Shown in pieces: positions 17,456-64,000 of a stretch of 64,000 nt of DNA (its first letter is position 1; each line of letters opens with the position of its first letter). The notes under the pieces are model-generated. The model ran no database searches. It saw only the letters and a list, made by a program, of their open reading frames with translations, and had not been told where the DNA came from. Origin of the DNA: an uncultured Alphaproteobacteria bacterium. Lineage in GTDB: Bacteria > Pseudomonadota > Alphaproteobacteria > JAJFIK01. The stretch is taken from the NCBI GenBank assembly GCA_964474635.1, contig CAYYTT010000002.1, positions 6,015 through 70,014 of the forward strand, read 5' to 3'. A program made the translations under genes and the position numbers.

Positions 17456-19054
17456 ATGCTCGTGATCCTGTCCCATGCCACGCCCACAAAATCATCCGCC
17501 CCGGTGCAAAAGATGGCGCATCAGCGGTCCGGGTCCCAAGAGGATCCGGATGCGGTAAAGCCTGGGCACTCGCAAGGCAGCACAGACTTTGCCGCTCTAA
17601 CCGCTGATCTCGTGAGCCAAGGCGCAGGCCCGCGGACGCCCCATCCCAACACCGTCGCAGTCCCGTCGGCTCCCCGGGGCGCGCCGGGTGACGGGCACCC
17701 ACCAGCCCATGGCGGGTCCGCAGCCGCCCCATCGCCCCGTCTTGTCACGGCGCTGCACATTGAGCCGCAAGGCCCGGTCCTTTCGAGCCCTCCTCCGGTC
17801 AGTGATCCGGATGCGGCAGACACCAATGCAGCAACACCCTCTCTGCACCCCAGCGCTGCGTCGTTTGCGGAGCAAAAACACGCGACGACCCCTCGCGCCG
17901 TGGTGACAGGATCAAAGGGGATCCCGCCGCAAGGCGGCGAACCGATGATCCCAACGCAGGCCAACCATACGAGCCCTGCGCAAAAGACCGTGGGCGCCCA
18001 AGTCCCCCAACAGTCAAGCGCGACGCCACTCGAAACGGCAGGCCCCGCTCCCAATAGGGGGCAAAGTGAGACATCCGATCGCCTTGCATCAGGACACCCA
18101 ATCGGCGGCGCCGTGGACTCCGCTGAACGAGGCACGGGCAGGGCTGCTTCCGCAGCGCCCCCGCCCACTGTTGTCCAAGGCCGGCATGGCGATCAGGCCG
18201 GCGCCAAGGATGCAGGTCTCGACGCGCCAGGCAATCCTGACAAATCCGTAGGCGAAGCGGATCTGCACAGTGTTCAGCCGAGTTCGCGCGGATTGACCGA
18301 CGAAAGCTATTCCGTCTCCGGAGCGCCCCATCCCGCCGCCGGAGCGCTACATTCCGCCGCCGGAGCGCCCCATCCCGCCGCCGCAGCGCTAAGGCGTGAT
18401 GCCAAACCGGCCCAGTCGGAAAGCGCGGCCCAACTGCTCCGCTCCGAGGGCATGCCGTCTGTCCATGGCACCAAGGACGCCGGGCCCGATGCGACCATGC
18501 GTGCCCTTGAACCCCTTGCGCCGCCGGCCCCGAACGCAGCGGGCCCCGGACCGGCGCGGCCCCCTGCAATTGACGCGCCCGTGCCGGCGCCACCATCACC
18601 ATCGTCATCACCGCCACCGCCACCAACCGCGCAGCTCGCCGAAGCCTTCCAGGCCAGGTCCATGGCAAGCGGCACTCGCTTTGTCCTGGAACTGGTCCCC
18701 GCAACACTGGGGCGTATTGGTGTTTCTGTCCTCATCAAGGATGGGCAGATGCGTGTGAATATCCGCAGTGAGCGGACGGATGTTCTAGCGGCCCTGCAAG
18801 GGGAGACCCGGGTCCTTGAGCGCCAATTGGAGCCCCACCTGGCCCGTGGCAATCAGGCGCTGCTGGAGTTCGAACTCGACCATCGTGGTGAAGGCAGTCA
18901 TAGTCATCAAGAGGCGGACGAAAAGGCTAGGGAGACCCGGCCCGGCCCCGAGGTTCGACAGAACGTCGTCCCCGATGTCCCCTCCGCCGAGGCGCCCCGC
19001 CCCGGTCGGCCCGCCATGGATCGCACCATTTCCACCATTGATGTCACATTGTAA
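17456..19054 (+). CDS. fliK: Flagellar hook-length control protein FliK (MotD-like), Pro/Ala-rich
   Basis: C-terminal Flg_hook block FVLELVPATLGRIGVSVLIKDGQMRVNIRSERTDVLAALQGETRVLERQLE. Immediately upstream of flgD. The start is uncertain: ATG 17456 follows GGAG, but the ORF is open from 17255. Confidence 0.7.
   Translation: MLVILSHATPTKSSAPVQKMAHQRSGSQEDPDAVKPGHSQGSTDFAALTADLVSQGAGPRTPHPNTVAVPSAPRGAPGDGHPPAHGGSAAAPSPRLVTALHIEPQGPVLSSPPPVSDPDAADTNAATPSLHPSAASFAEQKHATTPRAVVTGSKGIPPQGGEPMIPTQANHTSPAQKTVGAQVPQQSSATPLETAGPAPNRGQSETSDRLASGHPIGGAVDSAERGTGRAASAAPPPTVVQGRHGDQAGAKDAGLDAPGNPDKSVGEADLHSVQPSSRGLTDESYSVSGAPHPAAGALHSAAGAPHPAAAALRRDAKPAQSESAAQLLRSEGMPSVHGTKDAGPDATMRALEPLAPPAPNAAGPGPARPPAIDAPVPAPPSPSSSPPPPPTAQLAEAFQARSMASGTRFVLELVPATLGRIGVSVLIKDGQMRVNIRSERTDVLAALQGETRVLERQLEPHLARGNQALLEFELDHRGEGSHSHQEADEKARETRPGPEVRQNVVPDVPSAEAPRPGRPAMDRTISTIDVTL
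18320..18391 (+). repeat. 21-bp in-frame tandem repeat (about 3.4 units) inside fliK encoding GAPHPAA/GALHSAA/GAPHPAA/AAL
   Basis: GGAGCGCCCCATCCCGCCGCC, GGAGCGCTACATTCCGCCGCC, GGAGCGCCCCATCCCGCCGCC, GCAGCGCTA. Read directly. Confidence 0.9.
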
Positions 19055-19065
19055 GGAGAGGACCG

Positions 19066-19758
19066 ATGACGGATCCAATTTCAAGTCTTACTGCCCAGAC
19101 AACAGCCGGGGCACGGAGCACCGATGGGCGCTCGGGGACGTCTTCCCCTGGCAATCCGCTCCTCGACAATGAGGACTTTTCGACCTTTCTCGGCCTCCTG
19201 ACCGCGCAACTCCAATACCAGGACCCCATGGATCCCATGAACACGGATCAATTCGTGACCCAGCTTACCCAGTTCAGTCAGTTGGAACAGAGTGTCCGGG
19301 GCAACGATACGTTGGATGCCATCCGTGCGGACCTGGCGGGGCGCGGCGTTCAATCGGACGTGTCCCTGATTGGCCGGTCCGTCTTGACGGCGAGTAACGA
19401 GATCATTCTGGGTAAGGATGGCGCGACCATACGTTTTGAAGACGTCCCGGCGGGCGAGACGGTCGAGGTCCAGATTTCGGACGGGAATGGTGAGGCCGTC
19501 TCGACGTTTCCCGTCACGGCGACGCAGGGTGAAACTGTGGTGGAATGGTCCGGACGCACTGCTTCCGGTGACCAGATTGCGGAAGGGACGTATAAGGTGG
19601 ACCTGCGCCGCAAAGGTGTGGATGGCGCAGGTACCAGCCCTGTTCAGCCGTTGACCTTTGCCGCCGTCACCGAAGTGCGCCTTGTCGGCGGCACCGCCGA
19701 GCTTGTCCTCGACGGCGGCCTTCGCATCCCCGCATCCGAGGTCAGAGCGGTCCGCTAG
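19066..19758 (+). CDS. flgD: Flagellar hook capping/assembly protein FlgD
   Basis: FSTFLGLLTAQLQYQDPMDPMNTDQFVTQLTQFSQLEQ signature plus a C-terminal FlgD Ig-like region. Confidence 0.92.
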   Translation: MTDPISSLTAQTTAGARSTDGRSGTSSPGNPLLDNEDFSTFLGLLTAQLQYQDPMDPMNTDQFVTQLTQFSQLEQSVRGNDTLDAIRADLAGRGVQSDVSLIGRSVLTASNEIILGKDGATIRFEDVPAGETVEVQISDGNGEAVSTFPVTATQGETVVEWSGRTASGDQIAEGTYKVDLRRKGVDGAGTSPVQPLTFAAVTEVRLVGGTAELVLDGGLRIPASEVRAVR

Positions 19759-20212
19759 AGGGTTCCTGGAGCAAAAGCCGGTCAAAAAGGACGGCCGTGA
19801 TCGGGACAGTGTCTTGATACACCGTTTCCAGGTGACGTTTGAGATCGTCCCCCAGATCTTTCGGCGAAACGCTTCCCTTTGCGAACCTGCCTTTCGCTGA
19901 AAGATCGAATAACCCTTCCAGAAGGGCATGCCGCAGCACAGGACGGGACAGGGCGAGGGTCCGGTTGCCCTTACTCTCCGGCGGCACAGCAAGATTGATT
20001 TCCGCAAGGAGCAAGGCGTCGAACCCACCGCCCGGACCCGCCACAGGCACCACGAATTGACCGGCGGGCACGATGATACTGCGCGACAGGGCCGGGGCAA
20101 GGTCTGTTTCCACAGCGTTGGCCGGCGCCAAGTGTCGGCCTGTCATGAAACCATAAGCGGCACCAGTCAAGCCTAGTACCAAGCAGAGAGCCACAATATG
20201 GAAAAGACGCAT
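19742..20212 (-). CDS. fliL: FliL-family flagellar basal-body-associated protein (paralog 1)
   Basis: Start at ATG 20212 after GGAGA. Single N-terminal TM (MRLFHIVALCLVLGLTGAAYGF). FliL-like C-terminus (ITAVLFDRLLLQE). Sits after flgH, as in Rhizobiales clusters. Confidence 0.65.
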   Translation of the reverse strand: MRLFHIVALCLVLGLTGAAYGFMTGRHLAPANAVETDLAPALSRSIIVPAGQFVVPVAGPGGGFDALLLAEINLAVPPESKGNRTLALSRPVLRHALLEGLFDLSAKGRFAKGSVSPKDLGDDLKRHLETVYQDTVPITAVLFDRLLLQEPSSGPL

Positions 20213-20256
20213 TCCGGATAATCTCCAGCATGAAGGAAAGGGAGGGGTGGCACCCC

Positions 20257-21006
20257 TCAAAAGGGCATGATGATGTCGTAGACCTGCTGGCCGATCCGCG
20301 GCTGTGCCACATTGGAAATCTGACCCCGGCCACCATAGGCGACCCGCGCCTCGGCGATCTGGTCGTACTGGATCGTGTTGTTCTGGGCGATGTCCTCGCG
20401 GCGGATGACCCCGGCAATCCGCAACTCTCGCAGTTCAAAATTGACGCGAACCTCCTGGCGGCCCGCGATGACCAGATTGCCGTTGGGCAATTGCTGGGTC
20501 ACAACGGCCGCGACGCGCAAGGAAATGGACTCGTTCCGGTCGATGGTTCCGCTGCCGTCGCTCCGGCTGGCCGAGCCAATATCAACAGCCGTGTCCGGAT
20601 CAAAACTCTCCGGCAAGGCCTTGGACAGGCTCGACTGCAAGCCGAAAAGGTCGCCCACATCCAATTCCTCGCGGCCATCGCGCGCCCTGGATGTGGAATT
20701 GCGCAAGGTTGCCTCGTCATCGATTTCGATCAGGACCGTCAGCAGGTCCCCAACCTGGCGGGCTCGCTGATCCTGAAAGAAACTCGTACGTCCGGCCGTC
20801 CAGATGGCGCCGCGTGTCCGGACGGAATGGATGGGGGCCGGCATGGGCATGGACACGATCCGGGCTTCCTCCTGTTGGGCCGGGTCGCCAATGGCCGAAA
20901 TGTCGGGCGGTCGGCCGAGGCTGTTCAACTGGCCCGCACAGCCCGCCGCGAGCGTGCCTAGGCAGATGACCGCCACGCAACGATGAAACGAACCTACAAC
21001 GCTCAC
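20257..21006 (-). CDS. flgH: Flagellar L-ring lipoprotein FlgH
   Basis: Lipobox LGTLAAGCAG. FFQDQRARQVGDLLTVLI, GNLVIAGRQEVRVNFELRELRIAGVIR, YGGRG blocks. Confidence 0.92.
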   Translation of the reverse strand: MSVVGSFHRCVAVICLGTLAAGCAGQLNSLGRPPDISAIGDPAQQEEARIVSMPMPAPIHSVRTRGAIWTAGRTSFFQDQRARQVGDLLTVLIEIDDEATLRNSTSRARDGREELDVGDLFGLQSSLSKALPESFDPDTAVDIGSASRSDGSGTIDRNESISLRVAAVVTQQLPNGNLVIAGRQEVRVNFELRELRIAGVIRREDIAQNNTIQYDQIAEARVAYGGRGQISNVAQPRIGQQVYDIIMPF

Positions 21007-21740
21007 GGATGGCCTCCATTGCCGATCAGGGAAACCGTGTCCGGGCCCGTGACGACGGCCTGCACCACGCGGCCACTCTCAAGATTAGCCACGCGGACGA
21101 CTTCCCGTCGCCCGCCGTCCTCAAGCGCCTTGCCTTGAATTTCGATCCGAAGGCCGCCTTTTGCAAAGATCATGCGCACAAGCCTGTTGCGCGCCACAAG
21201 ACGCGGCGGCCGGAGCATCCGCGCCTGCAACGGCCGCCCGGGCATGAGCACCCGCCGAGCCTCATGGCCAAGGGCGTCATCTTCGCTTGTGAGGGATTGG
21301 GGTGGGAGGTCGGCCAGATTGAGGCGTACCATCTCAATATCGGCCGCTGCGATCATTTCCCCTGGCTCGATGCGTCGTACCGGGACGGGTACAAGAATCT
21401 GGCGCACCGCCCGGCCGAGCACCGCATGTCGCCTCACAATGCCTTGAGCATCCCGGTAAAGAGCATTCACACGAAAACGACCTGTACGCCGTTCGAAGCG
21501 GACACGGCCAATTTCATCGATTTTCCTCGGCGGCAGGGAAAAAAACTCCACCGAGAGATGGCCGGCGCTCTCGTCATGAGGTCCTTCAGAGGCCAAAATG
21601 GCCTGGCGCACCAGGGCCTCAAGTGACGCGTGTGTCCCGTCATCGGCTCTGGCGGCCGGTGTAACGGCCATGACTGCGGCAATCACGATACACAGGCGAT
21701 ATACCGTCCGCTTCATGATAGATCTGATTTCAAAGGGCAT
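21003..21740 (-). CDS. flgA: Flagellar P-ring assembly chaperone FlgA
   Basis: Signal peptide. SAF/FlgA C-terminus (RIEPGEMIAAADIEMV, LVRMIFAKGGLRIEIQGKALEDGGRREVVRVANLESGRVVQAVV). 4-nt overlap with flgH. Confidence 0.85.
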   Translation of the reverse strand: MPFEIRSIMKRTVYRLCIVIAAVMAVTPAARADDGTHASLEALVRQAILASEGPHDESAGHLSVEFFSLPPRKIDEIGRVRFERRTGRFRVNALYRDAQGIVRRHAVLGRAVRQILVPVPVRRIEPGEMIAAADIEMVRLNLADLPPQSLTSEDDALGHEARRVLMPGRPLQARMLRPPRLVARNRLVRMIFAKGGLRIEIQGKALEDGGRREVVRVANLESGRVVQAVVTGPDTVSLIGNGGHP

Positions 21741-22576: not shown

Positions 22577-23308
22577 TCAGCTGCTGGGCCGGCCAAGGCG
22601 GCTGATGCTGTCCTTTTTCAATTCATGGCCGTCCGTTGCGGTCCGGCTCGAGTTCTCATAGGCGCGTGCCAGCTCGATCATCCGTGTCATTTCCAGGATG
22701 GGACGCACATTGGACCCCTCCAACGCACCTTGAACAATTGAGGTTTCAAAGGCGGGCAGGGGGGCGACATTGCCCGGTGCCTTGTACAGACTGTTGGCCT
22801 CGCGCTCGAGCATGCTGACATTATCGAACTCATAAAGGCCGATCCGGCCAATAAGCTGTCCGTCCGCTGTCAAAGTTCCGTCTCGACCGATATCGATGCG
22901 TTCGGTCTCCGGCGGAAGCGGAATGGCGGCGCCTCCGTCGTCAAGAATGACACCGCCATGAACATTGATTAAAAAGCCATCCGTTGAAAGAGTGAGACGA
23001 CCATCCCGGGAGTAACGCACGCTGCCGTCCTCCGCCTCTACCTGGAACCAGCCGGGCCCGCGCAGGGCAATATCGAGCGGGCGCCCGGTCTGGCTCATGG
23101 TGCCGGCCGTGACATCCGTATACGTGGCGCGATCAATCACGAAGGAGACCGGGTTGTCGCGGTTCGCCCGGCTCAAGGCGGTGTCGAACAAGGAGCGTTC
23201 CGCCCGAAAGGCCGTGGTGTTCATGTTGGCGAGGTTGTGGGCGATGACCTGCAACTCCCGCCGCAAGGCCACCTGTCCGGACAAGCTGACATAGAGCGAC
23301 GTATCCAC
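22577..23308 (-). CDS. flgF: Flagellar proximal rod protein FlgF
   Basis: MDTSLYVSLSGQVALRRELQVIAHNLANMNTTAFRAE N-terminus. LEGSNVRPILEMTRMIELARAYE C-terminus. Confidence 0.9.
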   Translation of the reverse strand: MDTSLYVSLSGQVALRRELQVIAHNLANMNTTAFRAERSLFDTALSRANRDNPVSFVIDRATYTDVTAGTMSQTGRPLDIALRGPGWFQVEAEDGSVRYSRDGRLTLSTDGFLINVHGGVILDDGGAAIPLPPETERIDIGRDGTLTADGQLIGRIGLYEFDNVSMLEREANSLYKAPGNVAPLPAFETSIVQGALEGSNVRPILEMTRMIELARAYENSSRTATDGHELKKDSISRLGRPSS

Positions 23309-23429: not shown

Positions 23430-24986
23430 GTGGGGGCAACTTTGCTTCGAATTGTTCTTTTCGCGGTCTGTCTGGTCGGTACCAGTGCAGTGGGCGCGCC
23501 GCAGGCTGGCATGGCGGCCGATCTTCCCTGTCCGGACATGGTGGGTCTCCTGGCGTCCGGATCGCCGGACGGCAACGCGCGGCAGGCGCCCTTTACGCAA
23601 ACGCTAAAGGCTCTTGTTGGATCATCAGCACACCGCTTTGTAGATCATGAGCCTGACCCCGCGGTACAGGGTGACCGCGCTGTCCTGAAGGCCGCGGCCC
23701 ATTATGCTGCCCACGGGCTTTTTCAAGAAGTCCACGGGCTAAGACGCGGGATCGAGCCGGCTTGTGCAAATGCCAACTGGTTGCTGGGGGCTTCCCTCAT
23801 TGCGGCCGGCGCGCCGGCGGCCCAACGAGACCTTGAAATGCGGGCGGAGGCGGGGGATGGGGCCGCCGCCCTGTGGTTGATTTTGGGCATGTCGATCCGG
23901 ACCAAGAGTGCTCTTGGACCCTCTGGATTTCAGGCCGCGGCCCCGCATCTGGCGGATCTTCCGGTCACCTTGCGCGATGCGGGGCGCCTCCATCTTGCCT
24001 TCGCGGCCGCACAGGAGGGCGAAACGCAATTTGCAAAACGGCTTGTGGAGCAGTCGCCCTCACCGTCCGCGCGGGCCATCGCTTTGACCGGGGCCTTTGC
24101 GCTGAACAGTCTCCAGTCTCTTGTCGCTGGGATGCTTGCGGAGCATGCCGGCGCGTTCGATGCGGCCAAGGGCCATTATGACGCCGCCATCGCATCCGGC
24201 GGACGGCCCGGCGCGGAAGCGGCCTTGCGCTGTGCCAATCTGCTTTGGCAGGAAACACCGGAACTCTTGCCACAAACCATCCAGCGCCTGGAGGACCTGC
24301 GCTGGGCCTGGCGCGGCGATGAGGTGGAAGCGCGCACGCTGCTGACCTTGATCCGCGCCTATTCCCTGCGGGGGAACGACACCATCGCTTTGGATCTGGC
24401 GGTGACCTTTGCCGCCCGGTTTCCCGAACGCGCCGATCGGGCACGGACAATCATTGATGCCATTGTGGAAACCAAATTCGTAAAGGCGCCGGAGACAGAG
24501 CAGGACACTCTGATGCGGTTTGAAGGGCTTGCCCGTCTCATGCGCCGGGGGGCGTCCGAGACGTCAGGCTCCGGGTCGGTCAGGCAGGCTTTGCAGATAC
24601 TGTCCGAAACATATCATCTGCCAACGGATCTGGTGACTTATGGGGCCGCGGTCGCACCGGTTCGTTTAGCATTGCGGGGGTTAAAGGGCACGAGCACCGC
24701 CCAAAGCCCATCCCTCGAAACCCAAGAGTACGAGCCCCTCACGGGGCATACCGAGAAGCCAGGTGCGGTCGTTGATGCAACCGATCTGCCGCAACGGGAC
24801 AAAATGCTCCTCTCACTGCTCAATATTCCCGATGCTCCGGACGTCCCCGCGGCGGATGAAGAAAGGGGTTTGAGCGCCATCGATAGGGCTTTGCAGTACA
24901 GCCGGAACCTTGAAACCCTGGTCCGTGTCCATCTCTCGGGCCGTCTGAACGCGAGCACCACCCCAGAAGGAGGAGAAGGTCCATGA
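23430..24986 (+). CDS. Hypothetical exported Ala-rich helical-repeat protein, translationally coupled to motA (candidate MotC-like stator accessory)
   Basis: GTG start. Signal-like MGATLLRIVLFAVCLVGTSAVGAPQAG. 518 aa. Its stop overlaps the motA ATG (ATGA at 24983-24986). I recognise no family motif. Confidence 0.5.
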   Translation: MGATLLRIVLFAVCLVGTSAVGAPQAGMAADLPCPDMVGLLASGSPDGNARQAPFTQTLKALVGSSAHRFVDHEPDPAVQGDRAVLKAAAHYAAHGLFQEVHGLRRGIEPACANANWLLGASLIAAGAPAAQRDLEMRAEAGDGAAALWLILGMSIRTKSALGPSGFQAAAPHLADLPVTLRDAGRLHLAFAAAQEGETQFAKRLVEQSPSPSARAIALTGAFALNSLQSLVAGMLAEHAGAFDAAKGHYDAAIASGGRPGAEAALRCANLLWQETPELLPQTIQRLEDLRWAWRGDEVEARTLLTLIRAYSLRGNDTIALDLAVTFAARFPERADRARTIIDAIVETKFVKAPETEQDTLMRFEGLARLMRRGASETSGSGSVRQALQILSETYHLPTDLVTYGAAVAPVRLALRGLKGTSTAQSPSLETQEYEPLTGHTEKPGAVVDATDLPQRDKMLLSLLNIPDAPDVPAADEERGLSAIDRALQYSRNLETLVRVHLSGRLNASTTPEGGEGP

Positions 24987-26760: not shown

Positions 26761-26857
26761 AAATGATCCGGGATTGATGAAAATGCCAGATTTTCCCTGG
26801 CTTTAAACCCGTTCGCTTAAGCTGATCGGGTTGCCAATCCTTGAGCGGGAGGACCAA

Positions 26858-52233: not shown

Positions 52234-52241
52234 CTCTTGGC

Positions 52242-54397: not shown

Positions 54398-56518
54398 TCA
54401 GATCTGGGCCAGCGTTTTCAAACGCGCCTGGGGGTGAATTTCGTTTTGCGACATGACGACCGTCTGGGGGCGGAAACGCTCAATCACCGAGCGTACATAG
54501 GGCCGGGCAAGGGGACTGGTCAGCAGGACAGGCATTTCCCCCTGCGCGCCCAGTTGCTCGAAGGTGGTGCGGATCTGGTTGATGAAGTCCTGGAGCTGGG
54601 AGGGCGCCATGGCGAGTTGCCGTTCCTCACCCTGACCAACCAGGCTTTCCCCGAAGGCCTGTTCCCAGTCGGGCGAGAGGCAGACGAGCGGAAGATAACC
54701 GCCGCCCGGGTCCTGATTGGCCGCGCAGATCTGCCGCCCCAGCCGCATGCGCACATGCTCCGTTATCATCGTGATGGAGCTTGTGAACCCTGTGGCCTCG
54801 GAAATACCCTCAAGGATCGATGGCAGGTCGCGGATGGAAACGCGTTCACGCAAGAGGGCCTGCAGGATGCGCTGGATACCGGTCATGGAGATGTGTCCGG
54901 GCACCAGGTCTTCGATGAGTTTTTGATGATCGCCGGGCACGTCATCGAGCAGTTTTTTCGTCTCCGCATAGGAAAGCAGCTCGGGCATGTTGTCCTTCAG
55001 CACCTCGGTGAGGTGGGTGGTGAGCACCGTGGCCGGATCAACAACGGTGTAGCCGCGGAAAGCGGCTTCCTCACGCAGGCCCGCGTCGATCCACCGGGCC
55101 GGAAGGCCAAAGGCGGGTTCGGTCGTGTCCTCTCCAGGCAGGTCAACGGGCGCGCCGCGCGGATCCATGACAAGCAGGGCACCGACTTTCAGATTGCCCG
55201 CGCCCGCATCCATTTCCTTCACCTTGATGGCGTAGTGGTCGCTGCTAAGCTGCATGTTGTCCAGGATGCGCACCGATGGCATCACGAAACCCATGTCGCT
55301 CGCCAATTGGCGGCGCAGGGCCTTGATTTGATCCGTGAGGCGATAGCCTTCTGCATCGTTGATCAGGGGCAGGAGGCCATAGCCCAATTCCAGGCGCAGA
55401 TTGTCCATGGCGAGGGCCGAACTGATGGGCTCTTCGGCCGGTTTTGCCTCGTCGACCTTCACCGACTCCGCCTCGGTGGCCCGGCGGCGCTGCTCCTTTT
55501 GTTGCTTGCCAAGCCAATAGGCCCCGTAGGCGCACGCGCCCGCGAGGGCAATGAACGTGACCTTGGGCGTTCCGGGCAGAACGACGACAATGGCAAGCAC
55601 GGCCGAGGCCATCCCAAGGGCCTGCGGATAATTCGTAAACTGGCGGATCAGCGCCTGGTCAGTTGACCCATCCACTCCGGATTTGGACACAAGCAGGCCG
55701 GCGCCCACCGAAACGATCAGGGCGGGTATCTGGCTGACAAGGCCGTCGCCAACCGTCAAAAGGGTATAGGTGTTGGCGGCCGTGCCGATATCCATGCCCT
55801 TCTGCGCCATGCCGATGATCATCCCGCCGATCACATTGATAAACGTGATGATCAGACCGGCGACGGCGTCGCCGCGCACGAATTTGCTGGCACCGTCCAT
55901 GGCGCCGAAGAAATTGCTCTCGTCCTCCAGGTCTTTACGCTTTTTCTTTGCGGTGGCCTCATCGATCAGGCCCGCAGATAAATCGGCATCGATGGCCATC
56001 TGTTTGCCGGGCATGGAATCCAGGGTAAAGCGCGCGGCAACTTCCGCGATACGGCCCGAACCCTTGGTGATGACGATGAAATTGACCAGGACAAGAATGG
56101 CGAAAATGATCACTCCAATGATCACATTGCCCTGCATGATGAAGCTGCCGAAGGCCTGGATCACGTCGCCGGCCGCGTCCGTCCCCTCATGGCCGCGGCT
56201 CAGGATGAGGCGCGTCGAGGCCAGATTGAGCGACAGGCGCATCAGGGTCGCGATCAACAGGACGGTCGGGAAGGCACTGAATTCAAGCGGCCTCTGAATG
56301 AACAGGGAGACCATAAGGATCAAGACCGAGAACATCAGCGAGACGCCCAGGAAGAAATCCAGAAACAGCGGCCCCATGGGCAGCAGCAGCACCGCCAGGA
56401 TGCCCACAATGCCGCCCGCGACCATCAGGTCGCCGCGCTGGGTCAACTGGCGCATCAGCCCGATGATATCGAGCCCCGTACCGCCGCCGGCCGCCGATTG
56501 ATGTCCTGCCTCGCTCAC
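54398..56518 (-). CDS. flhA: Flagellar export gate protein FlhA (set 2)
   Basis: 706 aa. FSAFPTVLLIATLMRLSLNLASTRLIL, VITKGSGRIAEVAARFTLDSMPGKQMAIDADL, FFGAMDGASKFVRGDAVAG. Confidence 0.95.
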   Translation of the reverse strand: MSEAGHQSAAGGGTGLDIIGLMRQLTQRGDLMVAGGIVGILAVLLLPMGPLFLDFFLGVSLMFSVLILMVSLFIQRPLEFSAFPTVLLIATLMRLSLNLASTRLILSRGHEGTDAAGDVIQAFGSFIMQGNVIIGVIIFAILVLVNFIVITKGSGRIAEVAARFTLDSMPGKQMAIDADLSAGLIDEATAKKKRKDLEDESNFFGAMDGASKFVRGDAVAGLIITFINVIGGMIIGMAQKGMDIGTAANTYTLLTVGDGLVSQIPALIVSVGAGLLVSKSGVDGSTDQALIRQFTNYPQALGMASAVLAIVVVLPGTPKVTFIALAGACAYGAYWLGKQQKEQRRRATEAESVKVDEAKPAEEPISSALAMDNLRLELGYGLLPLINDAEGYRLTDQIKALRRQLASDMGFVMPSVRILDNMQLSSDHYAIKVKEMDAGAGNLKVGALLVMDPRGAPVDLPGEDTTEPAFGLPARWIDAGLREEAAFRGYTVVDPATVLTTHLTEVLKDNMPELLSYAETKKLLDDVPGDHQKLIEDLVPGHISMTGIQRILQALLRERVSIRDLPSILEGISEATGFTSSITMITEHVRMRLGRQICAANQDPGGGYLPLVCLSPDWEQAFGESLVGQGEERQLAMAPSQLQDFINQIRTTFEQLGAQGEMPVLLTSPLARPYVRSVIERFRPQTVVMSQNEIHPQARLKTLAQI

Positions 56519-56560: not shown

Positions 56561-57949
56561 TCAGGGATGGGCCGTGCGTGCATCGCCCGGCTGGGGAACG
56601 GGAACGCCTTCTTCGCTGTACTGTTTGAGCTTGTTCCGCAGGGTCCGGATGGAAATACCCAGAATATTGGCCGCATGGGTCCGATTGCCGAGGCAATGGT
56701 CGAGCGTGTCGAGGATCAGATCCCGTTCCACGTCCGCGACCGTTCGGCCCACTAGACTGCCGGCCGCCACGCGCACTTGCGCGGCTGCCTGTGCGGCGTG
56801 TTCCGCGGGCCCGCCCAGGGGCAGGAGCGCGGCCGCCCCGTCGACTTTCGAGCCATCCGGCAGGCGAATGGCGTCCTCGGTGATCTCATGGCCCGTCGAC
56901 AGCAGAACCGACCGGTGCATGGTGTTCTCCAGCTCCCGGACATTGCCCTTCCAGGGATGGGCCACAAGGGCGCGCTTGGCCCGCTCGGAGAGGGGCTTGG
57001 GCACGATATCATTCGCTTGGGAATATTTGGCGATGAAGAATTCCACCAGGGCGAGGATGTCCTTTGGGCGTTCCCTCAGGGGGGGGATCTTCAAATTGAC
57101 CACATTCAGGCGATAGAAGAGGTCTTCGCGGAACGTCCCTTCCTTAACGGAATCGGCCAGTTTCCGGTTCGAAGTCGCCAGGATGCGGATGTCCACCTTG
57201 ATGGGTTTGGAGCCGCCGACCCGGTCGATTTCCCGTTCCTGGATCGCGCGCAGGAGCTTGGCCTGCAGACGAATATCCATCTCGCTGATTTCGTCGAGCA
57301 GCAAGGTGCCGCCATCGGCTTCCTCGAACTTCCCGATGCGCCGGGCGAGTGCGCCGGTGAAGGCGCCTTTCTCATGGCCAAACAATTCCGATTCGAGCAG
57401 ATTTTCAGGGATCGCCGCACAGTTCACCGAAATTAAAGGGTGTTCGGCGCGCAGCGATTTGCTGTGCACATATTTCGCCATGACCTCCTTACCGACACCG
57501 GATTCTCCAGTGATCAGAATGCTGGCATTGCTCGGTGCCACCTGGTCCGCCAGGGCGATGACGTCGGCCATGACATCATCCCGGTAAATCATCTGCTGGC
57601 GGTCATCGGCCACGGCCGACAGAACCGCGCCGATTAACTCCGCATCGGGAGGAAGGGGGATGTATTCCTTCGCGCCGGCGCGGATGGCGTTGACGGCTGC
57701 CCGCGCGTCATTGCCGATGCCGCAAGCCACCAGGGGCACGACGATGTGTTCGCCGTTCAATGCTTCGATCAGCCGGCGGATGTCGAGGGCCACATCCACC
57801 ATCAGCAGGTCGGCGCCGCGCCCGGCCCGCAGGTGATCAAGGGCGCTCTCAACGCTGGTGACATGGGCGACCTTGGCGCCCCGGTCGCTCGCGATCTTGG
57901 TCGCGGTACTGAGCTGACCGTCCAGAATTCCCACAATGAGCAATCGCAT
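56561..57949 (-). CDS. flbD: Sigma-54-dependent transcriptional activator with an atypical receiver domain (FlbD/FleQ-like)
   Basis: ATG 57949 after GGAG. AAA+ Walker A GESGVGKEVMAKYVH. Sigma-54 contact loop ESELFGHEKGAFTGA. Fis-type HTH AANILGISIRTLRNKLKQY. The receiver lacks the N-terminal acidic pair (reads LIVGILDG). Confidence 0.88.
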   Translation of the reverse strand: MRLLIVGILDGQLSTATKIASDRGAKVAHVTSVESALDHLRAGRGADLLMVDVALDIRRLIEALNGEHIVVPLVACGIGNDARAAVNAIRAGAKEYIPLPPDAELIGAVLSAVADDRQQMIYRDDVMADVIALADQVAPSNASILITGESGVGKEVMAKYVHSKSLRAEHPLISVNCAAIPENLLESELFGHEKGAFTGALARRIGKFEEADGGTLLLDEISEMDIRLQAKLLRAIQEREIDRVGGSKPIKVDIRILATSNRKLADSVKEGTFREDLFYRLNVVNLKIPPLRERPKDILALVEFFIAKYSQANDIVPKPLSERAKRALVAHPWKGNVRELENTMHRSVLLSTGHEITEDAIRLPDGSKVDGAAALLPLGGPAEHAAQAAAQVRVAAGSLVGRTVADVERDLILDTLDHCLGNRTHAANILGISIRTLRNKLKQYSEEGVPVPQPGDARTAHP

Positions 57950-57967
57950 GGTTCTGCTCCTCAAAAA

Positions 57968-58831
57968 TCAGGTCGTGAAGCGGCGCGCCTGGTCCCGCGG
58001 CGCCAGATGGGCATTGATGGCAAGCTCCAGGTGACGCGGGCTCTCGCGCCGTGCGATGGCCAACGCCGCCAGCGCATGGATGATATTGATCTGTCCCATC
58101 AGGGTGCTGCGCTCCTCGAGACGCTGGGCAATGGGGGCAAAGACCATGTGCCCCAACACCGCGCCGTAAAGGGTTGTCAGCATGGCAAGGGCCATGGCCG
58201 GACCGATGGCGGCCGGGTCATCCAGCAGGCGGAGCATCTGGATCAAACCCACCATGGTTCCGATCAATCCCATGGCCGGTGCGATTTCGGCGGCGCGGCG
58301 AAAGACTACGGCCGTGCGCCGGTGACGCTCATCGATGGCGCGCAGCTCATTGCTCAGAACCCGTTCCATGTCCTCCGGCGGCAACCCGTCGATCACCATG
58401 GTCATGGCCTTCTGGATGAAGGGCCGGCCTTGAAATTTCGGCAGGGCCTGCTCAAGCAGGGGCAGCCCTTCCCGGCGCACCTGCTCGGCCATGCGGACGG
58501 CAGCCGTCGAGACGCTCCGCACCGATGCGGCCGGGGACAGGACCACAAAGCGCAGGCCACGCGTCGCGCTCATTAGATCGGTCGCCGGTGTGCCCGCGGC
58601 GGTGATGAAAAGCGTACCCCCCAGCACAATGAGGAGGGAGCGCAGGTCCAGGAAAGCATCCGCCGGACCGCCAAGCGCAATGGCCGTCATCAGTGTAATG
58701 AGCGCAAGACCGAGCGCGAGGGGTGTGGAGACGTCAAAGTGCAGACGTTCCGCCTCATGCACAAGGTTGGTCAAGCGCTGACCTGTCTTTGGGGCCGAAG
58801 GCGCGGCCGAGGATCCGGACGTCATGGTCAA
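57968..58831 (-). CDS. motA: MotA/PomA-type flagellar stator channel protein (set 2), with no adjacent motB
   Basis: EIAPAMGLIGTMVGLIQMLRLLDDPAAIGPAMALAMLTTLYGAVLGHMVFAPIAQRL matches the MotA/PomA TM3-TM4 signature. Four predicted TM segments. Confidence 0.8.
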   Translation of the reverse strand: MTMTSGSSAAPSAPKTGQRLTNLVHEAERLHFDVSTPLALGLALITLMTAIALGGPADAFLDLRSLLIVLGGTLFITAAGTPATDLMSATRGLRFVVLSPAASVRSVSTAAVRMAEQVRREGLPLLEQALPKFQGRPFIQKAMTMVIDGLPPEDMERVLSNELRAIDERHRRTAVVFRRAAEIAPAMGLIGTMVGLIQMLRLLDDPAAIGPAMALAMLTTLYGAVLGHMVFAPIAQRLEERSTLMGQINIIHALAALAIARRESPRHLELAINAHLAPRDQARRFTT

Positions 58832-59181
58832 ATGCCGCCCTTGACGATTTCGGTCATGGTAATCCCCAGGCGTTCCTCCACAAGCACCACTTCGCCGCGG
58901 GCGACCAGGCGGTCATTCACATAGATGTCGATGGCCTCACCGACCTTGCGATCCAGTTCCACGACGGCGCCCCGTCCGAGTTTCAGCAATTGACTGACTT
59001 CCATTTCCGTCTTGCCCAAGATGGCCGAAACCCGCACCGGTATGTCGTAAACGGCCTCAAGATCCGTTGCCGTCTTTTTGATATCGGCGCCTTCGGACTC
59101 CGCCTCGCTTTGGTCAGGTTCGGGAACCGGCTCGCCTTCCGGGTCCAGTTCCGGCAAGTCCACATTATCCCCGTCCGCCAT
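58828..59181 (-). CDS. fliN: Flagellar motor switch protein FliN (set 2)
   Basis: IPVRVSAILGKTEMEVSQLLKLGRGAVVELDRKVGEAIDIYVNDRLVARGEVVLVEERLGITMTEI. Confidence 0.92.
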   Translation of the reverse strand: MADGDNVDLPELDPEGEPVPEPDQSEAESEGADIKKTATDLEAVYDIPVRVSAILGKTEMEVSQLLKLGRGAVVELDRKVGEAIDIYVNDRLVARGEVVLVEERLGITMTEIVKGGI

Positions 59182-59204: not shown

Positions 59205-59855
59205 TTACTGATCAAACAGGTCAAGTTGAGTGTTGCCCTCCGCCTCCAGATGCTCCCGGATCATGGTGCGCAGGGCCTCAAGCCCTTCGGCCCAGTTGCT
59301 AAAGGCCCCGCCATCGGCCCAACTCAAGGCGCAATCGGCACTGTCCACGGTGTCGTCCGGCGTGATCTCCAGATGTCCGGTAAAACCGGCGGCCTGCGCC
59401 GCTGCCTCGATCCGGCCGGCAAGTTCCTCGGCCATGGCCGGCGCCAGACGGATGGTGACCTGGGACGTCGTGCGCAGGGTGGAGAGAGCCTCCTTGATAA
59501 TGGCCTCCAGATGATCCGCTCCGTGACGCTCCAGCGCTGTCTCCATGAGGTGACGGGTCGTCTCGAGGGACAGGCGAGCGCCTTCGGCGCGCACGCGGTC
59601 CACTTCACCCTGGAGCGTACCGATGATGTCGCCGAGCTGCGCCGTGATGGTGGCGAGGGCGGCGTTCACGGCCTGAGCCGTCGCTTCTTGTGTTTTGGCC
59701 TCCACGCTCGATTGACCCTCGGCGAAGCCGTCCGCACGCGCCGCCTCCACGTCTTCGGCGGTGAAGCGGGTCTTGGGTCTGGGCGGGCGTTCGCGCACGG
59801 TGTTGCCGTAGCGGTCGAACTCCGTGTCGAAGGTGTATTTGACGTGTTCACTCAT
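59205..59855 (-). CDS. fliH: FliH/FlbE-like flagellar assembly protein (set 2)
   Basis: 216 aa between fliG and fliN. FTAEDVEAARADGFAEGQSS charged helix. Confidence 0.6.
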   Translation of the reverse strand: MSEHVKYTFDTEFDRYGNTVRERPPRPKTRFTAEDVEAARADGFAEGQSSVEAKTQEATAQAVNAALATITAQLGDIIGTLQGEVDRVRAEGARLSLETTRHLMETALERHGADHLEAIIKEALSTLRTTSQVTIRLAPAMAEELAGRIEAAAQAAGFTGHLEITPDDTVDSADCALSWADGGAFSNWAEGLEALRTMIREHLEAEGNTQLDLFDQ

Positions 59856-59865: not shown

Positions 59866-60906
59866 TCAATAAATCAGCTCATCTTCGCCGCCGGACTCGG
59901 CGATCATGATCTCGCCCTTGGCCGCCAGATCCTTGGCCAGGTTGACCATCTGGGTCTGGGCGTCGTCCACGTCCTTCAGGCGTACAGGCCCCATGGCTTC
60001 CATATCTTCGCGCATGATTTTGCCGGCGCGTTCGGACATGTTGGAAAAGAACAGGTCGCGCAATTGATCCGAGGCCCCCTTGAGGGCGAGCGCCAGCTTG
60101 TCCTTTTCCACACTGCGCAGCAGCGTCTGGATACTGCCCGGGTCAAGCTTGTTGAGATCCTCAAAGGTGAACATCAAGGCCTTGATCCGCTCCGCCGCAT
60201 CCCGGGATCGTTCCTCAAGGGACGTCAAAAAGCGCGCCTCGGTCTGCCGGTCAAAATTGTTGAAGATCTCCGCCATCATTTCGTGGGCGTCGCGTTTTTG
60301 CGTACGCGCCAGGTTGGACATGAATTCCACCCGCAAGGTGGATTCGATCTTGTCCAGGATGTCCTTTTGCACCGACTCCATGCGCAGCATGCGCATCACC
60401 ACCTCCAGGCCGAAATCCTCCGGCAGGGAGCCGAGCACCCGCGCCGCATGATCCGACTTGATCTTGGAGAGGACGACCGCGACGGTCTGCGGATATTCAT
60501 TCTTGAGATAATTTGCCAGAATGGCCTCGTTCACATTGGCCAGCTTGTCCCACATGGTCCGCCCCGCCGGCCCCCGGATTTCCTCCATCACATTCGTGAC
60601 TTTGTCATCGGGCAAAAAGCGTTTCAGCAACCGCTCGGTCGCTTCGTAGGACCCCATAAGGGCGCCCGTGCTCGACATCTTGCCGACGAAATCGATCAGC
60701 AGCTGCTCCACCACGGCCGAATTGATCGTGCCCAGATTGGACATTATCTGGGAAATCTCCTTCAACTCGTCGTCATCGAGCATGGCCCACAGGGGTTTGC
60801 CGTGTTCTTCCCCGAGCGACAGCAGCAGAACCGCCGCCCGTTCGGGACCGGACAGTTTGCGCACGTCGTCGATGACGGCCGGGACGGCTTTGGCGGCTCT
60901 TGCCAT
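59866..60906 (-). CDS. fliG: Flagellar motor switch protein FliG (set 2)
   Basis: [61 protein letters not shown]. Confidence 0.93.
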
Positions 60907-60917
60907 GGATTAGGTCC

Positions 60918-62603
60918 TCATGGGGTTTCGTGCAGCCAGCTGCGCAGGATCGACATGGATTCCTCCGGATGCGCCGTGACGATCTCGCCGACCTTGCGCA
61001 CGGAGGAGTCCTTGACCTGTCCCTGGATGTGGGCAAGGTCGATGGCCTTCATCACGTCCGTCGTCCCGTCGGGGGAGGGCAGGCCTGGAACGCCCTCCTC
61101 CGCCGCCGCGTCCTCCCCAACGGCGGGCGTTCCCGGACCGGTGAGTTGGGGCACGGCATCCGCGCCCTCGATGGCGGCGACCGGCAGGCCATCCGCGCCG
61201 ATGGCCTCGCCCATCGCCACGCCGCGCGGGCTCATGAGGCGCTTGATGAGCGGTTGCAGCGCCAGAAGGAAAATCAGGGCCAGGATGACCAGTGCGATCG
61301 ACTCCACCACCCGGTTGATGTCCAGGGTGTCCATGAACCCGCCGGGCTCCTCCGGCAGGTCCACTGGTTCGGGCTCGGCAAAGCGGGTCGAAATGATCCG
61401 GATCTGGTCCCCGCGCTCACTGTCAAATCCCACGGCCGCCTTGACGAGGTCCTCAAGGTTGGCGAGGGTTTGGGCGGGGCGGGCCTCGAAGGTCACCGTG
61501 CCATCCGCAGCCGTTGTTTTGATTTCATTCACCACGACCGCGACACTGAGGCGCTCCAGGCGGCCGGCTTCCTGCACTTCGGTGCGCTTCGTGAGCGAGT
61601 TTTCGTAGTTGATGGTCTCTTCGCTGCGGTTTTCCTGGGACGAGGACTCCGGGCCATCCGTATCCTGCGCGGCATCGGGCAGGTTGTTGCCCACCGAGAC
61701 CGCGCCGGTGTCTTCGCGGTCGCGGCTGTTGGCGGCTTCCTCGACCGTGCGTGTGGAGACCACCACCTGGCGATCGGGATCGAAACTGCGGGTTTCCTCC
61801 ACGACCCGGTTGTAGCTCATATCCGCCGTAACCCGCACCCGGGCATTACCGGCTCCGACAATCCGGGTCAGGATTTCTTCCGCTTCCGTCTGCAGCTGGC
61901 GCTCCAGTCCAAGACGCCGTTCGTCGAGCGTGCCAGCGATGGCGTCTGGTCCATCGCCCTGGCCGCTGGCCAGAACATTGCCCTCACTGTCAATCACCGA
62001 GACGCGCTGGGGCGACAGGCTTTCCACGGCAGAGGCAACCAGAAACTGGATACCCCGCACCTGGTTGCGCGTAAGGCTGCCATGGGTGGTTTCAAGCTGG
62101 ATGGACGCGGTCGCGGGCTTTTGTTCCCGGGCGAAGAGTTCCCGCTTGGGCAGATTGAGGAAGACCCGGGCCGTACGCACACTGTCAAGGGCACCGATGG
62201 TGCGCGCCAGTTCGCCCTCAAGGGCCCGGACATAGTTCACGTTCTGCAAAAAGCTTGTGGTGCCCAGAGCGCTTTGATTATCAAGAAGTTCGTATCCAAC
62301 AATGCCCCGCGCGGGCAGGCCTTCGCTCGCGAACGCCATGCGCAGGTCGAGCACATCGTCGCTCGGCACCAGGACGGTTGTGCCATTGTGGCGCTGCTCA
62401 TAGGGCACGTCGCGGCTGCGCAGTTCCTCGGTGATCCGGGCGGCGTCGCGCAGATCGAGATCGGTGAAAAGGACCGTCATGTCCTTGTCGGCGAGACGGA
62501 ACATGGCCGCCGCCAGCGCGCCGCCGAGCAGCGACAGGATCGCGATCCCGGCCACAAGGCGGGTCGTGCCGATCGAGCGCAAAAATTCCGAAACCCCGTT
62601 CAA
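60918..62603 (-). CDS. fliF: Flagellar MS-ring protein FliF (set 2)
   Basis: NGVSEFLRSIGTTRLVAGIAILSLLGG, LFTDLDLRDAARITEELRSRDVPYEQRHNGTTVLVPSDDV, GYELLD. I prefer TTG 62603 (GGGGG 6 nt upstream, family-typical N-terminus). The ORF is open to TTG 62696. Confidence 0.9.
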   Translation of the reverse strand: MNGVSEFLRSIGTTRLVAGIAILSLLGGALAAAMFRLADKDMTVLFTDLDLRDAARITEELRSRDVPYEQRHNGTTVLVPSDDVLDLRMAFASEGLPARGIVGYELLDNQSALGTTSFLQNVNYVRALEGELARTIGALDSVRTARVFLNLPKRELFAREQKPATASIQLETTHGSLTRNQVRGIQFLVASAVESLSPQRVSVIDSEGNVLASGQGDGPDAIAGTLDERRLGLERQLQTEAEEILTRIVGAGNARVRVTADMSYNRVVEETRSFDPDRQVVVSTRTVEEAANSRDREDTGAVSVGNNLPDAAQDTDGPESSSQENRSEETINYENSLTKRTEVQEAGRLERLSVAVVVNEIKTTAADGTVTFEARPAQTLANLEDLVKAAVGFDSERGDQIRIISTRFAEPEPVDLPEEPGGFMDTLDINRVVESIALVILALIFLLALQPLIKRLMSPRGVAMGEAIGADGLPVAAIEGADAVPQLTGPGTPAVGEDAAAEEGVPGLPSPDGTTDVMKAIDLAHIQGQVKDSSVRKVGEIVTAHPEESMSILRSWLHETP

Positions 62604-62713
62604 GGCAACCCCCGATCCCCACTTCGGGCCCCGCGCCTCCCCATGCCGGCGCCACTGGCCCTGCCGTCCGGATGTCTTCACCGGGCCGGTAGGCAAAAAA
62701 TGCCCCGGACGTC

Positions 62714-62975: not shown

Positions 62976-63260
62976 TCAGGCCATCACCTGATTGCGATAG
63001 TGTTGAATACGGGTCGTACGCAAGCCGGCGAGGCCGTGCTTGTCGATGGCCGTTTCCCAGGCGGAGAATTCCTCCTCCGTCAGGGCATAGCGGGCGCAGG
63101 CCTCCTCCAGTGTCAAAAGCCCCCCACGGACGGCCAGCACCACCTGCGCCTTGCGCCGGATCACCCAGCGCTTCGTGTTGGCCGGCGGAAGATCGGCCGC
63201 TGTGAGCGGGCTCCCATCCGGTCCGATAATATAGTTCACCCTCTCTTTCACCTCCACCAT
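62976..63260 (-). CDS. sciP: DUF1153-family small HTH protein (SciP-like CtrA inhibitor)
   Basis: 94 aa. YIIGPDGSPLTAADLPPANTKRWVIRRKAQVVLAVRGGLLTLEEACARYALTEEEFSAWETAIDKHGLAGLRTTRIQHYR matches my recollection of the SciP/DUF1153 pattern. Confidence 0.8.
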   Translation of the reverse strand: MVEVKERVNYIIGPDGSPLTAADLPPANTKRWVIRRKAQVVLAVRGGLLTLEEACARYALTEEEFSAWETAIDKHGLAGLRTTRIQHYRNQVMA

Positions 63261-63310
63261 TGACTGCTCCCTCCGTCAGTCCCCCTTTTCTTCAGGCTAG
63301 ACTTGTCCAT

Positions 63311-63366
63311 TTAAGGAACGCATAAGTGAAATGGTAACCTGTGCGTTAGGGATAACATGCGTTTAC
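63311..63366. promoter_or_regulatory. Three TTAA-N7-TTAA-like boxes in the sciP upstream region (candidate CtrA sites)
   Basis: TTAA-GGAACGC-ATAA (63311-25), GTAA-CCTGTGC-GTTA (63334-48), ATAA-CATGCGT-TTAC (63352-66). TTACCAT at 63363-69 resembles the TTAACCAT half-site. Confidence 0.35.
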
Positions 63367-63455
63367 CATGAACGGACCGTATCGCGTTCGGTGAGCGCCG
63401 GCACGCCGGGCCCCGCGCGCGGCACAAACGCGCAAGGCCCGGGCGATGACTGCGC

Positions 63456-64000
63456 TTATCGCTTGATACGGATCATTTCCTCGAGCATCTGATCCGCCGT
63501 CGTGATGATTTTGGTGGAGGCGGAATAGGCCCTCTGTGTAGTGATGAGGCGTGTGAACTCCTCGGCAAGGTCGACGGTCGAGCTTTCGAGCGAAGACGCC
63601 GCGACGGATCCGGCGCCGCCGGTGTTGGCCTCCAGCAGGGTCACGTCGCCGGAAATATCCGTACGGATATAGGCGTTGCCATTCGCCGCCGAAAGGCCGT
63701 TGGGATTCTGGAAGGTAGCCATGGGCAGCTTGAAGACCGGCTGCTGAACACCGTTGTCGAACAGGGCCGTCACGACACCGTTCTCGTTGACCCGCACCCC
63801 GTTGATGCCGCCAAACAGGGCGCCGTTCACACCGCTCGAAATGAGGGTAGACGCACTATCGAACTGGGTGATCCCGTTGGCTTCGCCCACATTGCCGAAA
63901 TTGAGCGTGATGGGCTGGGCGGCAAGGCCAGTGGACGGCGTATCCCAAGGAATGGTCACATTGGCCGATCCGGTCGTGGGTGTGGCGAGGGTCCCGTCCG
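63456..64000 (-). CDS. flgE: Flagellar hook protein FlgE (set 2), C-terminal part; the N-terminus lies beyond the window end
   Basis: SLESSTVDLAEEFTRLITTQRAYSASTKIITTADQMLEEMIRIKR C-terminus. The frame stays open to position 64000. Confidence 0.88.
   Translation of the reverse strand, partial: DGTLATPTTGSANVTIPWDTPSTGLAAQPITLNFGNVGEANGITQFDSASTLISSGVNGALFGGINGVRVNENGVVTALFDNGVQQPVFKLPMATFQNPNGLSAANGNAYIRTDISGDVTLLEANTGGAGSVAASSLESSTVDLAEEFTRLITTQRAYSASTKIITTADQMLEEMIRIKR

Follow-up and report, generated by a model that had tools for sequence, protein, structure and literature searches.

We analysed a stretch of 64,000 nucleotides (nt) from an uncultured alphaproteobacterium (contig CAYYTT010000002.1 of assembly GCA_964474635.1), referred to below as the window, in which two different flagellar gene clusters lie tail to tail. 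Set 1 occupies positions 17456-52182 (34.7 kb) and holds 38 intact genes in the Pfam and NCBIfam annotation, and set 2, whose genes are all on the minus strand, starts at 52242 and continues to the window end. Because raw open frames are unreliable in DNA of ~62% G+C, the genes were called from codon-position G+C and each call was then checked against Pfam and NCBIfam; start codons were refined after gene calling, including those of fliK1, the DUF1217 gene, fliQ and flhG. The genes of set 1 are listed here with their domain matches.

17456-19054, plus strand: fliK1, hook-length control, at the left end of set 1 (Flg_hook 28.4 bits, slightly below the cut-off)
19066-19758, plus strand: flgD1, hook cap (FlgD, FlgD_ig and FLgD_tudor domains)
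19742-20260, minus strand: fliL-like gene (FliL 20.3 bits, weak)
20257-21006, minus strand: flgH, L-ring (FlgH 183.5 bits)
21009-21626, plus strand: gene for a protein of 205 amino acids (aa) without Pfam or NCBIfam match, ~30% identical to a gene product in the relative L007
21745-22530, minus strand: flgG, distal rod (Flg_bb_rod, LlgE_F_G_D1 and Flg_bbr_C domains)
22577-23308, minus strand: flgF, distal rod (the same three domains)
23430-24986, plus strand: gene for a 518-aa protein upstream of motA1, without family match and 43-45% identical to the relative's copy
24983-25867, plus strand: motA1, stator (MotA_N, MotA_ExbB)
25897-26760, plus strand: motB1, stator (MotB_plug, OmpA)
26831-28144, plus strand: flgE1 (hook or hook-associated domains)
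28175-29653, plus strand: flgK (hook or hook-associated domains)
29716-30786, plus strand: flgL (hook or hook-associated domains)
30976-31689, minus strand: orphan regulator of the OmpR family, FtcR/Rem/LafR type (Trans_reg_C 70 bits, receiver domain 18 bits)
31911-33065, plus strand: flgI (FlgI 454 bits)
33062-33409, plus strand: rod-binding, flgJ-like gene (Rod-binding 41.7 bits)
33412-33924, plus strand: gene for a 170-aa protein at the flgN position, without family match of its own (FlgN is matched weakly at the same position in locus L139)
34040-35509, plus strand: flagellin gene of set 1, 489 aa (Flagellin_N, Flagellin_C)
35591-36004, plus strand: flaF (FlaF 97 bits)
35994-36434, plus strand: flbT (FlbT 106 bits)
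36431-37222, plus strand: DUF1217 gene (DUF1217 180 bits)
37194-38657, minus strand: fliI1, export ATPase (ATP-synt_ab 270 bits, T3SS_ATPase_C)
38791-39186, plus strand: flgB (rod domain)
39214-39630, plus strand: flgC (rod domain)
39725-40042, plus strand: fliE (FliE was called at the equivalent position in relatives)
40051-40320, plus strand: fliQ (Bac_export_3)
40357-42426, plus strand: flhA1, export gate (FHIPEP 800 bits)
42435-43196, plus strand: fliR, export gate (Bac_export_1)
43205-44287, plus strand: flhB, export gate (Bac_export_2)
44317-45012, minus strand: MotE-like gene (MgtE_N 25.7 bits, weak and under the model cut-off; no match to a MotE model)
45009-45662, minus strand: DUF6468-like gene (DUF6468 18 bits, weak)
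45659-46744, minus strand: fliM (FliM 149 bits)
46741-47262, minus strand: fliL (FliL 27 bits)
47404-49137, plus strand: fliF1 (YscJ_FliF)
49142-49768, plus strand: fliH1-like gene (FliH models matched weakly, under the cut-off)
49825-50244, plus strand: fliN1 (FliMN_C)
50241-51095, plus strand: fliP (FliP)
51157-52182, plus strand: fliG1, at the right end of set 1 (FliG_N, FliG_M and FliG_C)

These genes cover the export gate, the ATPase, the MS-, C-, P- and L-rings, the rod, hook, junction proteins, filament and stator of a flagellum, and the same gene order is found in locus L139. The flaF and flbT genes sit directly downstream of the flagellin gene. No MotC match was obtained among the set 1 proteins in Pfam or NCBIfam. 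The 518-, 205- and 170-aa proteins are fast-evolving, with 30-50% identity to the relative, and may by their positions have MotC-like, FlgA-like and FlgN-like functions. Within fliK1, a tandem repeat of 21 nt (three or more copies at 18309-18391) encodes a proline-rich unit of seven residues, which is probably part of a flexible ruler region. The OmpR-family regulator, aligned with a CtrA-like regulator, shows a 14-residue gap where the phospho-acceptor segment falls, and no kinase gene is present within the set 1 cluster. From its sequence, this regulator looks phosphorylation-independent.

Set 2 forms a single cluster within the window and has the order flgE-sciP-fliF-fliG-fliH-fliN-motA-flbD-flhA-flhF-flhG; its genes are given below from the junction with set 1 to the window end.

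52242-53102, minus strand: flhG, MinD/ParA type, 286 aa (CbiA and ParA domains)
53099-54376, minus strand: flhF, GTPase of the signal-recognition-particle (SRP) type (SRP54 73.6 bits; TIGR03499 FlhF 128.9 bits, under its cut-off of 174)
54398-56518, minus strand: flhA2 (FHIPEP 853 bits; 100% identical to database protein P0121)
56561-57964, minus strand: flbD, sigma-54-dependent flagellar activator (NF050807 FlbD 799.5 bits, cut-off 750)
57968-58831, minus strand: motA2 (Pfam/NCBIfam match)
58828-59181, minus strand: fliN2 (Pfam/NCBIfam match)
59205-59855, minus strand: fliH2-like gene (FliH models matched weakly, under the cut-off)
59866-60906, minus strand: fliG2 (Pfam/NCBIfam match)
60918-62696, minus strand: fliF2 (Pfam/NCBIfam match)
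62976-63260, minus strand: small regulator gene of the DUF1153/SciP type (PF06627 139.7 bits)
63456-64000, minus strand: flgE2, of which the window includes only the 3' part (Flg_bbr_C 60 bits)

For flhG, the 286-aa frame was chosen rather than a longer open frame. Together with flhF it lies directly downstream of flhA2, the same position as in the cluster on plasmid p2 of Azospirillum lipoferum 4B and in many other loci. Set 2 genes for the rod, rings, export gate and filament are not among the window genes, and relatives carry fliK2 and flgD2 further upstream of flgE2. The gene order of set 2 is shared by four relatives (loci L002, L003, L006 and L087) and by more than 30 alphaproteobacterial metagenome loci. 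Set 2 appears to be a cluster of an FlbD/FlhF/FlhG/SciP-type primary system which was inherited vertically in this lineage.

The two sets converge on the following short spacer.

52183-52241, no strand: convergent spacer with a GC-rich hairpin, which is the synteny breakpoint with every relative

The spacer between the convergent genes measures 59 nt, from the end of the fliG1 stop codon (52182) to the start of the flhG stop (52242). The hairpin folds with -39.5 kcal/mol on one strand and -40 kcal/mol on the other (z = -2.5 and -3.8), and no T-tract terminator was called in the spacer on either side. DNA homology to the loci of the relatives ends at 52182 on one side and at ~52276 on the other. 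An earlier reading of the same DNA (the original prediction) had described this convergent meeting at 52182/52242 over a 59-nt GC hairpin, and both sequence and folding agree with it. The marker genes it had assigned are all present, namely those for FlaF, FlbT, a DUF1217 protein, a Rem/FtcR-like regulator and a MotE-like protein in set 1 and for FlhF, FlhG, a sigma-54 activator and SciP in set 2. Its description of two gene sets in one block holds for set 1, which is complete, but set 2 lies only partly within the window.

The two sets contain paralogous copies of several genes, and we compared their products by BLASTP. The FlhA proteins are ~50% identical overall (51% over 677 aa), the FliF pair 37%, the FliG pair 43%, the FliN pair 58% over 73 aa, the FlgE pair 45% over the C-terminal 155 aa and the MotA pair 23%. 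The FliH-like proteins gave no mutual BLASTP match, and their FliH model scores of 47.6 and 95.3 bits were both under the cut-off. All seven pairs had been named in the original prediction and are present, with the two flhA genes at the coordinates it gave. Its hand count of 39 mismatches over 158 aa of FlhA (~75% identity) came close to the computed value, since the best 158-column stretch (FlhA1 residues 64-221) shows 37 mismatches and 76.6% identity. It was also right that the cytoplasmic domains of FlhA are more divergent: identity is 43% in the cytoplasmic half, compared with 57% in the N-terminal membrane half.

FlhA was the protein put into phylogeny, using a neighbour-joining tree of 38 FlhA proteins with 688 sites and 200 bootstraps. 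The tree consists of two clades, each with 100% bootstrap support, with FlhA1 in one and FlhA2 in the other. The FlhA encoded on plasmid p5 of A. lipoferum 4B falls into the FlhA1 clade (62% identity to FlhA1), together with other Azospirillaceae and Rhodobacterales, and its p2 FlhA into the FlhA2 clade (60% identity to FlhA2, which is 68% identical to that of Sneathiella). Because each of the two clades contains an FlhA of A. lipoferum 4B, a lineage-specific duplication is excluded and the pair of systems is old. The copies from the two sets are thus not sisters in the FlhA tree, and the earlier view that no recent duplication had taken place is borne out. A recent duplication of the cluster within this lineage was rejected as well from the identities of 23-58% between the paralogues and from the fact that each FlhA has closer matches in other orders than in its partner. 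Database matches of FlhA2 form a graded series of 100, 90, 90, 84, 79, 76 and 72%, followed by Sneathiella, Tepidicaulis, Parvibaculum and Minwuiales at ~67-70%. Those of FlhA1 comprise one close cluster at 92%, the next match at 69%, and then Azospirillum, Arenibaculum, Iodidimonas, Parvularcula and Rhodobacterales at ~65% and below.

To place the junction among related genomes, all of which are metagenome-assembled in the records of the named relatives, we compared the surroundings of both sets. In the nearest relative, GCA_964449455.1, set 2 and set 1 lie on different contigs, and flhG is followed by two genes of 119 and 387 aa, a TPR gene and yajQ. Equivalent series, made up of a small gene, one of ~400 aa, a TPR gene and yajQ, come after flhG in GCA_050331455.1 and GCA_964612085.1 (FlhA2 79%), and in GCA_964561475.1 (FlhA2 84%) the equivalent small gene is followed by the contig end. 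Thus, a gene of 119-135 aa stands directly after flhG in four relatives (L002, L003, L006 and L087), and the ~400-aa gene, the TPR gene and yajQ come next in the three loci which extend further (L002, L003 and L006). In one relative, the stretch further downstream of flhG includes fliJ-fliI and a ctrA-like gene. The intergenic stretches after flhG in L002 (14125-14298) and L003 (14070-14253) share the motif GAATGGCTTAACGTCC upstream of the 119-aa gene, which may be a promoter or operator of the unit beginning with that gene, a unit parted from flhG in the window genome. None of the 119-aa, ~400-aa, TPR and yajQ genes was found in the window, where tblastx gave only noise.

The set 1 loci of the relatives differ from the window in a similar manner. 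The fliG stop is the constant right end of set 1 in three related genomes, and its right neighbour is flhG in the window, a convergent FMO-like gene in GCA_964449455.1 and an alpha/beta-hydrolase gene in GCA_964406365.1. The left border was reached in the relatives by an FlgH search of genome contigs, which gave one close relative there; a search with the FliK1 protein returned no matches, probably because low-complexity candidates swamped it. In the two genomes where the left border is readable, the neighbours differ: GCA_964449455.1 has lipase-like, unknown and nitronate-monooxygenase-like genes, which have nothing in common with the left flank of the window. DNA difference amounts to 20-25% between the window and the relatives and also among the relatives, so that ordinary rearrangement is a sufficient explanation. 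Of ~130 further loci retrieved around genes of the FlgH or FliG type, none carries markers of both sets next to each other.

The state of both sets was assessed against GCA_964449455.1 with 33 genes of set 1 and 9 genes of set 2. All compared genes are intact, with ratios of nonsynonymous to synonymous substitution rates (dN/dS) of 0.01-0.26 for both sets and with synonymous sites near saturation. The flagellin of set 1 is by far the most constrained gene product of either set, with a dN/dS of 0.011 and 97% of its residues identical in the copy of the relative. By these measures, both sets are kept by strong purifying selection and neither appears to be decaying; the case of one frameshifted set, which the original prediction had raised as a possible objection, does not apply. 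Proteins of set 1 have a median identity of 0.80 to their counterparts in the relative, and those of set 2 one of 0.81. Because the two sets are equally diverged, both were present in the common ancestor with this relative, and set 1 is older than the junction.

From gene content, phylogeny, selection and synteny, we consider it probable, with good confidence, that the window contains two anciently diverged alphaproteobacterial flagellar systems, both ancestral and kept functional, whose tail-to-tail contact arose in a later rearrangement specific to this genome. The rearrangement would have cut flhG from its conserved downstream genes and joined it to the fliG end of set 1. Several observations weigh against this reading. 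The junction is known from a single assembly and no second contig with the same junction was found in the database; it is without independent confirmation because a metagenome scan with FliG1 gave no close relative (best match 55% identical). Two FlhA1-like proteins on 77,258-bp contigs, suspected of representing a second contig with both sets, were rejected as coming from two different assemblies. The remainder of set 2 and the present site of the genes formerly downstream of flhG lie outside the window, and we infer the polar versus lateral placement and the regulation from homology alone. Moreover, the G+C content at third codon positions (GC3) is 0.705 in set 1, compared to 0.764 in set 2 and 0.759 in the housekeeping flank (Mann-Whitney p 0.0005 and 0.007), and the database contains no FlhA1-type protein with an identity above 69% and below 92%, although there are FlhA2 relatives at 84, 79, 76 and 72%. 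Because of the lower GC3, a comparable difference in G+C between the loci of the two sets in the relatives and the gap in the FlhA1 matches, an earlier horizontal entry of set 1 into the lineage, before the junction formed, is plausible. Lower expression of set 1, or its loss from or incompleteness in other metagenome-assembled genomes, are alternative causes of the pattern in GC3 and distribution.

These compositional data also bear on the possibility that set 1 was gained horizontally as a flagellar island which integrated right beside a resident polar cluster, as the original prediction had suggested. In favour of this, set 1 forms one compact block, its GC3 is below that of its surroundings, its distribution among relatives is narrower than that of set 2, and FlhA1 groups with Iodidimonas and Parvularcula instead of the lineages nearest to FlhA2. 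However, the relatives have set 1 at other, separate loci while their flhG keeps its ancestral neighbours, and the equal protein divergence (0.80 and 0.81) puts set 1 into the common ancestor before the junction existed. There is also no integrase among the Pfam results for the window proteins, no tRNA gene in the window, no Rfam match in the search for hallmarks of mobile islands and no direct repeat matching the two borders of set 1. That set 1 simply inserted between flhG and the genes ancestrally following it was rejected, because these genes are not in the window, whose left flank consists of core housekeeping DNA. We therefore regard acquisition at this very site as very unlikely. Only a little less doubtful is that the 35-kb set 1 cluster, with its constant right end and changing neighbours, behaves as a relocating unit which happened to land against the polar cluster here; no recognisable mobility genes are present, and if true, a whole flagellar system would move within or between genomes by an unknown route.

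An assembly artefact, in which a chimeric join of two contigs produced the adjacency, would account for a junction that is the exact end of synteny on both sides and that recurs on no second contig, and the closest relatives are all metagenome-assembled genomes. Yet the junction has no repeat which might mislead an assembler, the only DNA common to the sets being ~640 nt of flhA at ~70% identity and far away. Complete genes with stop codons flank a normal intergenic hairpin, and both sets are equally diverged from one relative genome, as expected for a single organism; a chimera is thus highly improbable. We find it scarcely credible that the adjacency is functional, with convergent transcription over the hairpin coupling the systems, for example by interference between the fliG1 and flhG transcripts or by alternate expression. 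FlhG controls flagellar number in other bacteria, and a 59-nt spacer with one strong hairpin and no T-tract makes read-through conceivable in either direction. Against this, neither the four relatives nor the ~130 other loci show the arrangement, which is thus not conserved, and no regulatory motif links the sets: the window contains no CtrA-type site TTAA-N7-TTAA, and its 84 sigma-54-like sites are about as many as expected by chance (79). The only exact sigma-54 consensus, at 27820-27834, was taken as a chance match, since its position is within flgE1 and the relative has it in degraded form. Sequence evidence of cross-regulation between the sets was not found. The question of cross-talk that the original prediction had attached to the adjacency gains no support either, because the arrangement is derived and confined to this genome and hence provides no evidence of it.

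Set 1 is a self-contained secondary cluster; its own orphan OmpR-family regulator would activate it, while FlaF and FlbT would modulate the synthesis of flagellin. The part of set 2 in the window would represent early genes of the primary polar flagellum of the lineage, with the remaining genes elsewhere in the genome, and may follow a Caulobacter-like hierarchy of CtrA/SciP and then FlbD/sigma-54, while FlhF and FlhG would set the position and number of flagella. The hairpin in the spacer most likely ends or stabilises the two converging transcripts.

The left flank of the window (1-17000) is non-flagellar and contains ctpA, an M23 peptidase gene, gpmI, rlmH, rsfS, xdhC and a glutathione S-transferase gene. 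At 4900-11050, in a stretch where G+C falls to 0.53-0.60 compared to ~0.65 in the surroundings, lies a curli/type VIII secretion cluster, and a divergent pair of outer-membrane protein genes lies just left of set 1.

4914-5933 and 6072-6623: two genes for curlin-repeat proteins, in the low-GC stretch
6628-7101: CsgF gene, in the low-GC stretch
7194-8243: CsgG gene, in the low-GC stretch
9038-10114: gene of the FGE-sulfatase type, in the low-GC stretch
10180-11043, minus strand: gene for a LuxR-type regulator, in the low-GC stretch
13518-14645, minus strand, and 14900-16120, plus strand: divergent genes for OmpA-like beta-barrel outer-membrane proteins with C-terminal OmpA domains

Because it stands between gpmI and rlmH/rsfS, the curli stretch looks like an island inserted into a housekeeping neighbourhood.

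Dual flagella are already well known, and what is new here is an uncultured lineage with both systems and their side-by-side rearrangement. This alphaproteobacterial lineage joins the bacteria that combine a primary flagellum of the FlbD/FlhF/FlhG type with a complete secondary system in a single cluster. Secondary systems of this kind produce several lateral flagella, whose formation is typically triggered on surfaces or by certain carbon sources. Contact of the two clusters tail to tail is unusual, and a brief literature check found no published case of adjoining polar and lateral clusters. Because the contact is absent from the nearest relatives, it is a by-product of genome rearrangement and not a design feature, and it opens no new question of cross-talk. 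It may be of use as a marker for genome rearrangements of the lineage, and the region offers a compact 47-kb fragment with a whole secondary system and early polar genes.

Among characterised species, Bradyrhizobium diazoefficiens USDA 110 has its lateral flagellar genes in one 35-kb cluster including lafR, flbT and flaF, and its subpolar genes in four clusters (PMC6406911). Set 1 is likewise a complete secondary system in one cluster of that size (34.7 kb) with FlaF and FlbT, and set 2 would correspond to one cluster of a scattered primary system. LafR is an orphan regulator acting without phosphorylation (PMC8429497); compared with this description, the set 1 regulator is similarly an orphan, and it has a good winged-helix domain beside a degenerate receiver domain. 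In contrast to the abutting sets described here, the two systems of Bradyrhizobium occupy separate chromosomal positions. MotC and MotE are reported for its lateral cluster, but not for Azospirillum; in set 1, no MotC homologue was recognised and the MotE-like gene gives a weak MgtE_N match. The host of the window falls outside the Rhizobiales as judged from the relatives of FlhA2.

In A. lipoferum 4B, which like A. brasilense has polar and lateral flagella, the p5 cluster contains fliF-fliH-fliN-fliP-fliG, a response regulator, a 414-aa flagellin, FlaF, FlbT and DUF1217, as well as fliI, flgB, flgC, fliE, fliQ and flhA-fliR-flhB, and the p2 cluster has the order fliF-fliH-fliN-motA-sigma-54 activator-flhA-GTPase-MinD/ParA. 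Set 1 matches the single-cluster system of p5 and set 2 the gene order of p2. The 414-aa flagellin, set against the ~45 kDa of the Azospirillum Laf1 flagellin (PMC12826043), suggests that p5 encodes the lateral system. The original assignment of set 1 as secondary or lateral would thus agree with the p5 system and the lateral cluster of Bradyrhizobium (PMC6406911), and that of set 2 as an FlhF/FlhG polar type with its FlbD, FlhF, FlhG and SciP genes, the p2 order and the more than 30 metagenome loci. Unlike in the window, the Azospirillum clusters are on different replicons, and its polar cluster has no fliG between fliF and fliH.

The fliF operon of Caulobacter resembles set 2 in its order fliF-fliG-fliH/flbE-fliN...flbD-flhA. 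Further similarities are the set 2 FlbD, which scores above the NCBIfam equivalog cut-off, and the DUF1153/SciP gene beside fliF; set 2 differs by the additional motA, flhF and flhG genes and by the missing TTAA-N7-TTAA CtrA box. In Rhodobacter sphaeroides, the acquired set fla1 is gammaproteobacterial in type. The fla1/fla2 pair of this species arose when a complete set was gained by horizontal transfer in addition to the native one, according to Poggio et al. 2007 as cited in PMC6406911. It shares with the window genome the presence of two complete, non-sister systems in one alphaproteobacterium, and Rhodobacterales FlhA proteins are found in the FlhA1 clade. Different from R. sphaeroides, however, both sets described here are of alphaproteobacterial types.

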